Of a stretch of 64,000 nt of DNA, positions 31,886-59,942 are shown piece by piece. The notes under the pieces were generated by a model. The model did no database searches and was not told where the DNA came from. It saw only the letters and a program-made list of their open reading frames with translations. Source of the stretch: Candidatus Eiseniibacteriota bacterium. Lineage in GTDB: Bacteria > Eisenbacteria > RBG-16-71-46 > CAVPCR01. The number at the start of each line of letters is the position of its first letter. Within the stretch, counting starts at the first letter, position 1. A program made the position numbers and the translations under genes. The stretch covers positions 1,408,001-1,472,000 of the forward strand of contig CAWGMA010000001.1 of assembly GCA_963823555.1 (NCBI GenBank), in the 5' to 3' direction.

Positions 31886-31961
31886 TGGTGGAGCTGACGG
31901 GGATCGAACCCGTGACCTCTTGTCTGCCAGACAAGCGCTCTCCCATCTGAGCTACAGCCCC
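31886..31961 (-). tRNA. tRNA-Ala (GGC)
   Basis: GGGGCTGTAGCTCAG...cttgt-CTGGCAG-acaag...GGTTCGATCC...CTCCACCA, 76 nt. Confidence 0.97.
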
Positions 31962-32061: not shown

Positions 32062-32147
32062 TGGTGCCGGAGGCGGGACTTGAACCCGCATGACCGTGAG
32101 GTCACCGCCTTTTGAGGGCGGCGTGTCTACCATTCCACCACTCCGGC
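32062..32147 (-). tRNA. tRNA-Leu (CAA)
   Basis: GCCGGAGTGGTGGAATGGTAGAC...ccgcc-CTCAAAA-ggcgg, long variable arm, GGTTCAAGTCC, CCA end, 86 nt. Confidence 0.96.
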
Positions 32148-53642: not shown

Positions 53643-55748
53643 ATGGTTGCATCCAAGATCCGACACCTTGCTCTGACCTTCGCCCTCGTCTCGGCGGCTG
53701 CCCTGGCCCCGTGCCCCATGGCCGGCGGCGATCCGGCGCTTGGGCACCAGCCGGTACGCCTCGTCGCCGTCGACCTCCGAGAGCCAGGAGATCTTCTCAC
53801 GATCACCGAGCTCGGAGCGGACATCCTGGCCCGTGACTCACCGACTCGAGTGCGCGTGGCCGCCACGGATCAGGAGATCGCAGCCCTCCAATCCAGCCAT
53901 TTCTGCCTCTCGATTATCGAGCCCGATGTCGAACTCGCAGCCAGACGCCGGCTCGGGGCCGGACACGAGATCTACCACACATTCGATGAAGTGGTGGCGG
54001 AGCTTCACGAGCTGCACGCCCGTCATCCGGACCTGGTCGGCGCGCCACTCGTGATCGGCTCGAGCTGGGAGGGACGTCCGCTCCTGGCCGTCAAGATCTC
54101 CGATCATCCGGAGCGCGACGAGAACGAACCGCGAGTGCTCTTCGATGCGCTCCACCATGCCCGCGAACCGGCCGGGATGGAGACGATCCTCCATGCCATG
54201 AAGCACATCGCGGAGAACGCCGGGCGAGATCCGGATCTGCGCGCGCTGGTGGAGGAACGGGAACTCTGGTTCGTCCCGGTCGTGAATCCCGACGGCTATG
54301 TCTTCGGTGGCGTGGGCGGGCTGTGGCGCAAGAACCGGCGGGCCAACGCGGATGGCTCCTTCGGTGTGGATCTGAATCGCAACTACGGGCACGCCTGGGG
54401 GGCTGATGACGTGGGGTCGAGCCCGGTGCCGGCAAGTCCAATCTACCGCGGGCCGGCGCCTTTCTCCGAGCCCGAGACGGCGGCCATGCGCGATTTCGTC
54501 CTCGGCCGGCGCTTCGCCGCGGGCATGACGATCCATACCTTCGGCGACTTGAATCTCTTGCCGAATGAATCGGCGATGCGTACGCCGGCTGTCCTCGCGC
54601 GGCATGAGGACGTGGCCCACGATCTCGAAGCGTTGACGGGCTATCCCCACGGTCGGGCCCGGGACGTCCTCTATCGATCCAATGGTCGGACACAGGACTG
54701 GCTGGTTGCCGCCACGGGCATGGTGGTGATCGAGCCGGAGATCGGCAGCCCCAGTGACGGATTCTGGCCTGCGCCCAAGCGCCTTCTCGAGCTGGCTGAG
54801 AGGAATCTGCCGGGGATGCTCCATCTCGCGCGCATTGCTGGTCCCCACCTCGTGACCGATGGCTACACCGTTGACGACGGGGCGTCCCGTGATGCCAACG
54901 GGGCAGCAGATCCCGGGGAAACCATCGTCCTCCGGCTCGCGCTACGCAACATCGGTCTGGCTCCGGCGCGTGATGTCACGGTCATGGTGAGCGCGGAGAC
55001 GCCGCTCATCACGGTCCTTGCCGGTCGGGCGGAGATCGTCGAGATACCGGCCGGTGCCGTGCGCGAGATCCCGGATGCCACGCTCCGGATCCGCGTTGCT
55101 CCCGACGCCCGGCGGGGAGAACCGATTCCGCTCTCGGTCGTGGCCAAGGGCCGGGGAACGGCCTCTCCGGCCATGACTCTGGAGATCACTCCGGGAACGC
55201 CTGATCTCCTCTTCGCCGACGACGCCGAGGGAGGTCTCGATCGCTGGATCGCCGTTCGTGGTTGGGGTGTCGTCACGACATCTGATGGCGGCGGCGCCTT
55301 CAGCGACAGCCCGGATGGTCCCTACCGCGCTCATGCCAATTCGATGCTGACCCTGCGCAGCCCCCTGGATCTGCGCGGGGTTGCACAGCCGCGCCTCGCC
55401 TACATGGAGCGGTTCGCCGCGGAGCCGTGGCAGGACCGCTGCCTGGTGGAGGCATGGACTCCCCGACTGGGCTGGCAGACCTTGATCGCGGTCCCTGGCG
55501 GTGTCGAGTCCCGATTCCGCCAGCGCGAGGTTTCGCTCGGCGGGCTGGCCGGCGAGCCCGAAGTGCGGCTCCGTTTCCGCCTCCTGGCGAACCAGGAGCG
55601 CGAGGCTGACGGCTGGACCATCGATGACATTAGGATCTGGGGCTACCGGACCCTGGATGCCCCGATCTTCGCGGCCAGTGCGGCTGGGTCGTCCTCGCGC
55701 GGGAGCGAGGGGACGGGCAGCGCGGGGGCGGCGAGCACGGTGGAGTGA
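53643..55748 (+). CDS. secreted M14 zinc carboxypeptidase (CPT-like) with C-terminal beta domains
   Basis: HHAREP, NPDGY, WRKNRR, GVDLNRN, FSEPET, TIHTF, EPEIG. Confidence 0.92.
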   Translation: MVASKIRHLALTFALVSAAALAPCPMAGGDPALGHQPVRLVAVDLREPGDLLTITELGADILARDSPTRVRVAATDQEIAALQSSHFCLSIIEPDVELAARRRLGAGHEIYHTFDEVVAELHELHARHPDLVGAPLVIGSSWEGRPLLAVKISDHPERDENEPRVLFDALHHAREPAGMETILHAMKHIAENAGRDPDLRALVEERELWFVPVVNPDGYVFGGVGGLWRKNRRANADGSFGVDLNRNYGHAWGADDVGSSPVPASPIYRGPAPFSEPETAAMRDFVLGRRFAAGMTIHTFGDLNLLPNESAMRTPAVLARHEDVAHDLEALTGYPHGRARDVLYRSNGRTQDWLVAATGMVVIEPEIGSPSDGFWPAPKRLLELAERNLPGMLHLARIAGPHLVTDGYTVDDGASRDANGAADPGETIVLRLALRNIGLAPARDVTVMVSAETPLITVLAGRAEIVEIPAGAVREIPDATLRIRVAPDARRGEPIPLSVVAKGRGTASPAMTLEITPGTPDLLFADDAEGGLDRWIAVRGWGVVTTSDGGGAFSDSPDGPYRAHANSMLTLRSPLDLRGVAQPRLAYMERFAAEPWQDRCLVEAWTPRLGWQTLIAVPGGVESRFRQREVSLGGLAGEPEVRLRFRLLANQEREADGWTIDDIRIWGYRTLDAPIFAASAAGSSSRGSEGTGSAGAASTVE

Positions 55749-55791
55749 GAGGCCGGGGCCGCCGCCCACGGGGAGCCCTGTTCCAGCGCAA

Positions 55792-55990
55792 GCAAAAGAC
55801 CCAGAAGCACTTGCGGCGTACCGCCCCCGGCGGACCACCCGGGGACTTCTGGGTCCGGTGTCCTGTCTTGAATTTCGCAGACGACCGCCTGCGAAGGTCA
55901 ACCTTCGAGAACAGGCGTCAGCGAGCAGGCACCTCGCTGGTCTCCGATTTAGGTAAATTCATTCTTTGGACCACCTCCTTTCCGCGTGCC
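55792..55990 (-). ncRNA. candidate structured small RNA carrying a mini-ORF
   Basis: Extended SD, 14-codon ORF, several perfect stems, terminal 10-bp stem plus TTTT. See findings. Confidence 0.55.
55918..55962 (-). CDS. putative 14-aa peptide MNLPKSETSEVPAR
   Basis: ATG preceded by GAAAGGAGGTGGTCC. The stop codon overlaps the 3' arm of the cagcgag/ctcgctg hairpin. Confidence 0.45.
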   Translation of the reverse strand: MNLPKSETSEVPAR

Positions 55991-56049
55991 GTGATTGAGC
56001 CATGGAGCCCGTATCCCGTCAAGCCCAAGATTCAGGCCGCGGCGCGGAT

Positions 56050-56778
56050 CTAGCGGGAGGGCGGCAGCGCGGCAGCTTCGTCCTCCACCTGGAAGCGGTA
56101 GCCCACCTTGTGCACGGTCTGGATGTAGCGGCCCCGGGAGGACTCCCCTTCGAGCTTCTTTCGCAGCTTGGCGATGTGTGTGTCCACGGTGCGGGTGTTG
56201 GGAAGCATGTCCTCATTGTAGCCCCAGACCTGGTCGAGAAGCTCCTCGCGCGAGACGATCTGCCCCTGCCTGCGAACGAAGAGCCTCATGATCTCGAACT
56301 CCTTGTAGGAAAGCGGCACCGCTTGGCCGGCGCGCGTCACGGTCCGGCGTTCGAAGTCGATGTGGACGTCGCCGAACCGGAAACGAGAAGGGACCTGAGT
56401 TTCCGTGCGCCCGCTGGCACGCCGCAGAACGGCCTCGATCCGGGCCAGGAGTTCGCGCACCGAGAACGGCTTCGTCACATAGTCGTCGGCACCGAGTTCA
56501 AGGCCGGCGACCTTGTCCGCTTCCTGGCCCCGCGCGGTCAAGATGACGACCGGGGTGCTGACGCCGTCCTGGCGCAGTCGCTTGAGGATCTCGAGCCCGC
56601 CGAGGCCCGGGAGCATGAGGTCGAGGACGATGAGATCCGGGGCCGTGTTCTTGCCGGCAGCTAGCCCGGCGTATCCGTCCGCCGCGATCTCAACCTCGTG
56701 GCCCTCGTACTCGAGGTTGTAGCGGAGCCCCTCCTGCATGGCCGGCTCGTCCTCGATGATCAGGATACGCGGCATCAT
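56050..56778 (-). CDS. OmpR/PhoB-family response regulator
   Basis: IIEDE, LDLMLP, LTAR, GADDYVTKPF, winged helix RTVDTHIAKLRKKL. Confidence 0.95.
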   Translation of the reverse strand: MMPRILIIEDEPAMQEGLRYNLEYEGHEVEIAADGYAGLAAGKNTAPDLIVLDLMLPGLGGLEILKRLRQDGVSTPVVILTARGQEADKVAGLELGADDYVTKPFSVRELLARIEAVLRRASGRTETQVPSRFRFGDVHIDFERRTVTRAGQAVPLSYKEFEIMRLFVRRQGQIVSREELLDQVWGYNEDMLPNTRTVDTHIAKLRKKLEGESSRGRYIQTVHKVGYRFQVEDEAAALPPSR

Positions 56779-59193: not shown

Positions 59194-59747
59194 CTGTCGC
59201 ACCTGGCTGGTCTGACCTCGCTGGAACCTGGCCACCGGGGTGGTTCCCAGCCGCCTTTCGATCGACAACCTAATCTACCCCCCAAGGCACAGCCGTGTTG
59301 TCACCCGGAGGTCAACCCCCTGCAAACTATTTGTGAAGGCGAGGACGCGCCGCAGGAGGGCAAAACAGGAGGCTCCGGCCTCCCTGCCCGCGCAGCCTGC
59401 AAGCCGCCGGGCAAGTCCCTTGCGCCCAGAATGATCCAGTTCGGGCGCCATCGAGCTCACGGCCCGCCGTCCTGACCCGATCAGCCGCCTGGGCACGATC
59501 CCATCCGGGGCAGGGGCTTCACCTGGCCCCTGCCCACGGGCTGGCGGGAGCGATTTTCGTGCCCAATGGCAGCACCGGGATGGACGGGAACGGACTGTGC
59601 TAGTACAGGGTACAAGAAAGTGTGCTGGCTCTGGCGATGGCGGTTGCCAGCGGGTGGAGTATGGCCACTGGGTCGATTCCCCCGGCAGCTCCCACGAAGT
59701 CGCCAGGGGAATCGGGCCGGCAACCCAAAAGAAGGGGTGTGGTTGCG

Positions 59748-59942
59748 ATGCGAGTCAAGGTGGTCGATCAGAGGTCCTTCGAGAAGGCGCTCCGTCGGTT
59801 CAAGCGCGAGTGCATTCGCGAGGGCATCATCGCCGACATGCGCAAGAACGAGTTCTACGACAAGCCGAGCGTGAGGCGCCGCCGCAAGGAGAACCGTGCT
59901 CGTCGGCGCCGCCTCCGCCTGACCGAGGGCCAGGGCGATTGA
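59748..59942 (+). CDS. rpsU: 30S ribosomal protein S21
   Basis: FEKALRRFKR....GII.DMRK.EFYDKPS..RRRK. Confidence 0.93.
   Translation: MRVKVVDQRSFEKALRRFKRECIREGIIADMRKNEFYDKPSVRRRRKENRARRRRLRLTEGQGD

Follow-up and report, generated by a model that had tools for sequence, protein, structure and literature searches.

A stand-alone Ms_IGR-5 RNA in an Eisenbacteria genome: a covariation-based fold and a possible role in holding ribosomes

On the minus strand of the window, the 64,000-nucleotide stretch of Candidatus Eiseniibacteriota DNA analyzed here, a candidate small RNA gene carries an unusually long Shine-Dalgarno sequence (SD1) ahead of an open reading frame (ORF) of 14 codons. The sequence features listed in the preliminary description of the locus (the TTGACG hexamer, GAAAGGAGGTGGTCC, the ATG, the ORF, a second GAGGTG, the terminal stem and the TTTT run) were all confirmed on the minus strand, and they are collected in Table 1 with the features defined in this work. 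The region gave a fold z-score of -2.95 against shuffled sequences. A simple promoter and terminator scanner called neither signal for this element, which has a weak -10 and a branched 3' stem; we infer that the terminal stem and TTTT act as a terminator.

Table 1. Features of the Ms_IGR-5 element, in window coordinates.
Feature	Position	Strand	Basis
-35 hexamer TTGACG	56017..56022	minus	read from sequence
Weak extended -10 TG-n-CTCAAT, 17 nt past the -35, lacking the -11 A	55994..56002	minus	function inferred
Predicted transcript, about 194 nt (~195 bases), RF02471 Ms_IGR-5 member	55794..55987	minus	Rfam match 55790-55989
Helix P0 5' strand CGC, partner 55937-55935	55984..55986	minus	covariation, tree
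SD1, 17-nt complement to the 16S rRNA 3' tail (2 G-U)	55967..55983	minus	own 16S
GAAAGGAGGTGGTCC, the 15-nt SD stretch of the preliminary description	55982-55968	minus	sequence
14-codon ORF MNLPKSETSEVPAR plus TGA	55918..55962	minus	ATG 55962, TGA 55920-55918
Helix B 5' strand GACCA, pseudoknot with loop 55837-55833	55938..55942	minus	covariation
SD2 GAGGTG (55935-55930) and helix A 5' strand GGTGCCTG	55926..55935	minus	homologue conservation, swap test
Helix C, stop codon at base, variable-length hairpin domain including cgaagg/ccttcg	55876..55923	minus	pairing by inspection
Conserved unpaired linker AAATTCAAGA, family consensus AAUYC	55866..55875	minus	homologue alignment
Helix A 3' strand CAGGACACC, internal anti-SD mimic	55857..55865	minus	covariation
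3' domain: 10-bp terminal stem, hairpin F, UACG tetraloop hairpin, then TTTT	55798..55855	minus	stem covaries
10-bp terminal stem with two inner hairpins; TTTT 55797-55794	55855-55846/55807-55798	minus	sequence

A scan of the window against Rfam matched the element to RF02471 (Ms_IGR-5) with a score of 46.9 bits against a gathering cut-off of 45 (E 2.1e-7), and the match spanned the whole model, positions 1-184 of 184. A joint alignment that took in Mycobacterium, Streptomyces and other Actinomycetota showed a conserved core (SD1, GAGGUG, stop codon, linker, CACC and 3' stem) common to the element and the actinobacterial members, and by both score and anatomy the element is a member of RF02471. 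In the Rfam alignment, several non-standard pairs fall in the 5' half of the element, and covariation backs other helices. The preliminary description had recognized no family and proposed a novel one, taking a hit to a known Rfam family as the sign that the element is not new; since the Rfam comparison returned such a hit, the novelty of the family does not hold.

Rfam annotates RF02471 as an "Actinobacteria sRNA" that is non-coding and has local 5' hairpins. The M. smegmatis member, IGR-5, is also named ncMSMEG15794c, and the M. abscessus homologue ncMab10731. Expression of the family RNA has been reported in S. lividans (PMC8079986) and M. smegmatis (PMC10454040), and no rows for it were found in the supplements of PMC10454040 and PMC8780764. 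No function or functional study of Ms_IGR-5 was found in the literature searched, which covered few subscription journals and preprint supplements and did not cover the original description. That description is reportedly by Li et al. (PMC3527728). A link between Streptomyces scr4389 and Ms_IGR-5 was suspected but was not confirmed in the literature searched.

SD1 was compared with the 3' tail of the genome's own 16S rRNA, taken from the single 16S gene located in the genome. The two form 17 contiguous pairs (2 of them G-U) at about -30 kcal/mol, the longest run among the 17,342 GGAGG sites of the genome bar the antisense strand of the 16S gene itself, and the earlier impression of an exceptionally long pairing is thus borne out. 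Substitutions in SD1 of the homologues are nearly all wobble-compatible with the 16S tail. Among 101 distinct hits found with a covariance model (five reached via pattern matches; the model was partly trained on these), position 9 is A or G opposite U in 100, and positions 11 and 12 are C or U opposite G in 101 and 98, respectively. The long SD, start codon and in-frame stop are intact in 100 of these 101 hits, with ORFs of 9-18 codons. Similarly, 138 of 140 sequences in a first homologue set parse with a start in frame with the stop (lengths 11-19); of the other two, L002 is intact by inspection and L134 has only a near-cognate start.

A second GAGG (SD2) is present in 98 of the 100 intact ORFs and starts 13-16 nt ahead of the stop codon in all 98 cases (15 nt in the element itself). 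The GAGGUG of SD2 is nearly fixed, and its helix A partner tolerates mismatches. The encoded peptides of 9-19 residues are conserved across homologues in neither sequence nor frame, and among the model-found homologues they are polar and variable. Because the ORF is kept while the peptide varies and the distance from SD2 to the stop is fixed, selection acts on the RNA being readable as far as a stop codon at a set position within it. The stop is UAG in 78 of 100 homologues and in 813 of 1,854 long ORFs of this genome, a preference that may reflect pairing in helix C. In four homologues (L221-L223 and L237), the helix B position of the ORF is occupied by GGUGA, which makes a third SD-like word, and the loop in L221-L223 reads (A/G)UCACC, an anti-SD mimic.

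Comparison of the homologues predicts a conserved fold that differs from the one first drawn for this locus in that the 5' end of the RNA would pair into the ORF, forming helix P0. This helix is absent from the model and was found in an unbiased column scan as the top covariation outside it, with the first bases of the RNA paired to ORF bases ending at the G of SD2. P0 is 95.9% paired, with a covariation score of 0.471; shuffled columns gave 0.150 (0 of 500 reach it), and slid partners no more than 0.027. A tree was built with the variable columns of P0 left out, and on it 22 of the 37 changes at three variable pairs were double-compensatory, against a random-partner 95th percentile of 6%. Beyond the 97-row alignment of selected loci described below, an anchored test on 216 sequences likewise gave a mean of 3.52 pairs, against at most 3.16 in 500 shuffles.

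Helix A joins an ORF octamer starting in SD2 to the segment past the AAUYC linker. All four of its outer positions covary, and in a swap test on 217 sequences each 5' class paired best with its own 3' domain (7 of 7 classes). Helix B is a pseudoknot between ORF bases just upstream of the helix A octamer and a 3' hairpin loop, here the loop of hairpin F (GTGGTCCG), which holds the helix B 3' strand. It is 72.5% paired in a 36-row alignment and 83.2% in a 97-row alignment, for which 97 of ~220 loci were chosen by their long 3' domain and lineages without helix B were excluded; slid controls were far lower, and 14 compensatory changes were counted on a tree. Several lineages have lost helix B together with its partner hairpin, so their loop would be closed differently. 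Helix C was seen by inspection across homologues and is less firmly shown, because it is just 39-84% paired per alignment column. The terminal stem covaries.

Together, P0, pseudoknot B and the long-range helix A would enclose SD1 and the start codon in a loop of about 35 nt, predicted at 33-39 nt in 141 of 196 homologues, with the first paired base most often 13 nt past the start codon. The loop also takes in an A/U-rich stretch (61% A/U, against 33% downstream), and in the predicted fold of the element the 5' half of the ORF is A/U-rich and unpaired and the 3' half paired. An energy model prefers another fold, at -89 kcal/mol against -77 kcal/mol with helix A enforced and the pseudoknot unscored, in which the anti-SD mimic of the helix A 3' strand pairs with SD1; this fold may be a real closed conformer. 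Of the structure proposed in the preliminary description, the terminal 10-bp stem stands. The two 5' hairpins drawn there were rejected as part of the family fold: the one formed by cagcgag/ctcgctg (7 bp) is complete in just 3 of 217 homologues. The acagg arm, which had been paired with cctgt, pairs with the ORF instead as helix A. A hairpin between the SD1 tail and the ORF, pairable in 93-100% at three positions, could form, yet it shows little covariation. The ORF, P0, helices A and B and the SD2-stop spacing are absent from the Rfam model and were not found in the literature searched, the original description apart. The family itself was already catalogued.

Because the very long SD and tiny ORF sit in a predicted knotted closed loop, the RNA likely serves to hold ribosomes and to be unzipped while it is read, rather than to make a useful peptide. 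We consider it very probable that the RNA acts through engagement of the ribosome and not through its peptide. More tentatively, and with slightly less than even confidence, we propose that the element is a stand-alone Ms_IGR-5 RNA that serves as a reversible ribosome holder freed by translation. The path of mRNA around the neck of the 30S subunit is ~30 nt long, with the channel entrance at +11 to +16. The predicted loop length matches this path, and the knot would sit at the channel entrance. In such a model, the knotted fold would present the 17-nt SD and the start codon in a closed loop that grips the 30S subunit, with 33-39 nt of RNA in the mRNA channel around the neck. Initiation would be slowed by the over-long SD pairing, weak start codons and the knot. 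If translation is working, B, P0, A and C would be opened one after another as the ribosome elongates. Once the stop codon has reached the A site, SD2 would be free of its internal partner and at normal SD spacing to the P site (7 nt from GAGGU to the P-site codon), where it could capture the 16S tail. Once free, the anti-SD mimic could go on to close SD1, and turnover of the RNA would follow. If ribosomes are stalled, the complex would persist. Like the pRNA made on 6S RNA, the peptide would be a by-product. The fixed SD2-stop distance could also be purely structural.

Ribosome association has been recorded for the M. abscessus homologue, which reached 3,737 RPKM in ribosome profiling against just 70 RPKM in RNA-seq (PMC4974804). 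Among 36 ncRNA rows from that source, it had both the top profiling signal and the top profiling/RNA-seq ratio (53; next 12.5), where ratios were computed for 15 rows and the others judged by eye; tRNAs in that table exceed it in this ratio, and the authors caution that footprints are obtained from most ncRNAs (PMC4974804). The suggestion that the RNA engages 30S subunits or ribosomes is probably right, given the strong ribosome association of this homologue. Its RNA-seq level of 70 RPKM compares with 10,836 for 6C and 79,735 for tmRNA (PMC4974804), a low level that argues against a bulk ribosome sink during growth. In the same data set, it was the sole ncRNA listed as changed with erythromycin (logFC +2.67) and one of four listed with kanamycin (logFC +1.14), and it is absent from the changes tabulated for hypoxia and sputum medium (PMC4974804).

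These data bear on a second reading, in which the ribosome is only a sensor and the RNA is a translation-gated sRNA or protein ligand acting in trans: read-through would destroy the RNA and stalling would stabilize it, and the RNA would act by base-pairing of its C-rich linker and anti-SD mimic to target mRNAs, or through a protein that binds the fold. The low steady level and the induction by two ribosome-targeting drugs in M. abscessus agree with this, the low abundance better than it agrees with a holder, as does the conserved unpaired AAUYC linker, and all of the ribosome-loading evidence for the holder fits equally. However, the putative seed differs between lineages and, in the manner of a structural strand, covaries with the ORF. 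The longest complement of the linker and helix A 3' strand in the genome is 11 nt, against 10-15 nt in 20 shuffles, and a search of the genome for trans targets, which used exact matches only and had low power, found no complement beyond chance. We regard the sensor reading as the main rival to the holder, a real possibility that is nonetheless rather unlikely.

The length of SD1 also suggests that the RNA could pair with the whole 16S 3' tail to protect it or to probe its maturation or accessibility, with the ORF serving for release. Pairing well past that of a normal SD and the wobble-compatible selection on SD1 are what such a guard or quality probe would require, and extended SDs are reported to sense anti-SD accessibility in Bacteroidota rpsU (PMC9976891). 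This proposal leaves the knot, SD2 and the fixed stop position unexplained, and no link to rRNA or maturation genes was found among neighbors with a Pfam match; we consider it improbable.

That the locus is instead a micro-peptide gene, a stable mRNA for a regulatory peptide of 9-19 residues whose structure only sets output, appears more doubtful again. The strong SD, the intact ORF and the ribosome footprints in the M. abscessus homologue are as expected for such a gene, and an EVxxR-like end is encoded in the majority frame (129 of the 140 sequences of the first set). However, SD2 is read in frames 0, 2 and 1 in 62, 24 and 12 cases, so that 36 of 98 model-found homologues use another frame over the same nucleotides and unrelated peptides result, with ends such as EVAVR, and GGGCS, RCLVR, RRWLR or RGSPT in those 36. 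The codon ahead of GAG switches amino acid to keep its pairing with the 5' end, and weak start codons dominate, with 53 UUG, 28 GUG and 19 AUG among the 100 intact ORFs (UUG or GUG in 81). A functional micro-peptide, as was first suggested, is thus not supported by homologues in which both sequence and frame vary. The amino-acid conservation expected of dual-function sRNAs and micro-peptide genes is likewise lacking, three frames being used over the conserved nucleotides.

The remaining question is whether the element is a gene in its own right. Promoters of the homologues have TT at -36/-35 (in 59% and 65% of 160 sequences with a locatable start) and TAnnnT at -12 to -7 ahead of a pyrimidine/A start. 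Because this family consensus and the promoter spacing place the start there, +1 of the element is put at about 55987. A motif resembling its weak -10 occurs in two family relatives (L004 and L006). The element, present as a single chromosomal copy, is flanked by a same-strand OmpR-family response regulator, which ends at 56050, and by an M14 carboxypeptidase that is convergent and ends at 55748. Neighbors with a Pfam match are unrelated housekeeping genes, and downstream neighbors of the homologues are unrelated in function (91 ORFs scanned). The proposal of an independent small RNA gene is therefore upheld by the single copy, the conserved promoter of the homologues and the unrelated neighbors. 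Control by OmpR was rejected as a family trait, as a response regulator lies upstream in just 3 of 38 loci (64 of 129 candidate ORFs scanned), all three in this genome's own family. A leader-peptide attenuator was also rejected, since the gene here is convergent and the orientation and function of neighbors are mixed in homologues. A cis-acting leader or attenuator of a neighbor, or a 3' UTR and terminator of the OmpR-family operon, would fit the start of the element ~60 nt past the response regulator, an arrangement shared by two family relatives, but is largely refuted and highly improbable given the convergent downstream gene here and in ~44 of 97 homologue loci (crude ORF picks), the unrelated neighbors, the element's own promoter consensus and the independent transcripts mapped in M. 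abscessus with its own start (PMC4974804) and in S. avermitilis with mapped ends (PMC8780764).

Public reads over 55300-56500 from four runs gave contigs, none of them across the whole stretch, and the RNA run gave only a relative's piece (55710-55909, 15 differences). In run X1, which we guess to be DNA, a 222-nt contig covers 55760-55981, almost exactly the element, with 3 differences at a depth of 2.3, which is too low for calling a transcript. Elsewhere in the window there are a bS21 gene (59622-59942, plus strand) 3.6 kb upstream of the element, probably by coincidence, and two tRNA genes (31889-31961 and 32065-32147, minus strand). In Actinomycetota loci, a convergent gene for a THAP4-like heme-binding barrel lies downstream (11 of 91 ORFs scanned), which looks like inherited synteny.

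Members of the Ms_IGR-5 family were found in at least seven bacterial phyla. The Rfam model found it in 23 of 61 genomes (this one and its relatives), above the cut-off in 6 of 61. A pattern scan of a genome collection gave matches in at least 120 stretches; the matches listed, with taxa taken from record titles, include Actinomycetota (most), Acidobacteriota, Syntrophobacter, Binatia, Eisenbacteria, Sumerlaeota, Planctomycetota and Leptospira. A refined model (R1) was built from 36 sequences, partly found by pattern, which favors SD1 and SD2 in its matches. R1 found the family in 83 of 151 genomes of the window's phylum. In genome sets centered on a planctomycete, on Leptospira and on Syntrophobacter, the counts were 17 of 101, 7 of 61 and 3 of 81, respectively, one of the last three being false. 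All 40 of the weaker own-phylum matches that were inspected had the family anatomy. Among viral contigs, none of 11 pattern matches had the full anatomy (one ends at the contig edge). The distribution of the family is patchy. Homologues and covariation across relatives do not bear out the concern that the element is just a terminator between convergent genes without conservation. L238, which has no ORF, was judged a false hit, L014, L015, L023 and L024 were dropped as non-homologous, and L025 proved to be the 3' half of L018 rather than a separate locus.

Several variants of the RNA were observed. Long forms of ~280-310 nt (L018/L025, G038:C29:18452-18764, and L174) have a greatly expanded helix C domain and an unchanged core. 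In a divergent own-phylum lineage (L176-L188 and L197-L208), an extra 5' hairpin lies about 40 nt ahead of SD1. Its loop, which reads UUGGGU or UGGGA, is complementary to the RNA's own linker ACCCAR and possibly forms a further pseudoknot with it; these loci lack the usual -35/-10 at that distance. In L011, L013, L016-L022, L039, L056, L101 and similar loci, hairpin F has disappeared along with helix B, leaving just a simple terminator-like hairpin as the 3' domain, with SD1, the ORF, SD2 and helix A kept.

An RNA listed in Rfam as actinobacterial and non-coding is thus a predicted knotted RNA with a kept ORF, read by ribosomes in a homologue and present in many phyla, including mycobacteria, streptomycetes and Leptospira. 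The known ribosome-storage factors are, to our knowledge, proteins. If the holder model is true, ribosomes would be held or gauged by an RNA that translation resets, which would amount to a new kind of translational control; if the RNA is a translation-gated sRNA instead, it would still sense ribosome stress in an unusual way. Although the locus is one of many, the ring-closing helix and fixed second SD would be a concrete and possibly new form of ribosome control. The covariation-based fold (P0, A, B and the SD2 spacing) makes the model directly testable.

Among known systems, the RF02471 Ms_IGR-5 RNAs are alike in SD1, ORF, SD2, linker, 3' domain and stand-alone transcript, and the element differs from them in lying outside Actinobacteria. 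tmRNA is also a free RNA with a short ORF and pseudoknots, and it wraps part of the 30S subunit. In contrast, the element has its own SD and start codon and no tag-like conservation of its peptide, and the Rfam scan matched neither a tmRNA model nor a tRNA-like domain. CreT RNA toxins are short RNAs with a strong SD, a start and a stop that act through translation and not through a peptide. The element differs in having no rare-codon run, a single chromosomal copy and a much larger conserved fold, and no CRISPR-cas or antitoxin link was found among neighbors with a Pfam match. In Bacteroidota, where bS21 governs anti-SD accessibility, the rpsU mRNA likewise uses an exceptionally long pairing with the 16S tail to read ribosome state (PMC9976891). 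The rpsU SD, as presented in that work, heads an autoregulated protein gene, whereas no conserved protein follows the SD of the element. In the rpsO operator of E. coli and mycobacteria, a pseudoknot at the start site holds the 30S subunit in a non-productive complex (PMC8470358). That operator acts in cis, needs uS15 and controls a long gene, whereas the element is an RNA in its own right that carries a separate 3' stem.

6S RNA is a very abundant template mimic that binds RNA polymerase tightly and is released by a short product of near-irrelevant sequence. The likeness would be one of working principle, release by a throw-away product, as in pRNA synthesis on 6S RNA (PMC3299989). The element would bind ribosomes rather than RNA polymerase, the family RNA is of low abundance in the single M. 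abscessus data set, and 6S models gave no match in the Rfam scan of the window. By this analogy, and as a speculation that we consider more doubtful than the holder model itself, Ms_IGR-5 might be to the ribosome what 6S RNA is to RNA polymerase: an mRNA mimic of pan-bacterial range, with a knot that would ring the neck of the 30S subunit and park ribosomes when translation falters, a disposable peptide to unlock it and a second SD to hand over the 16S tail at the stop.
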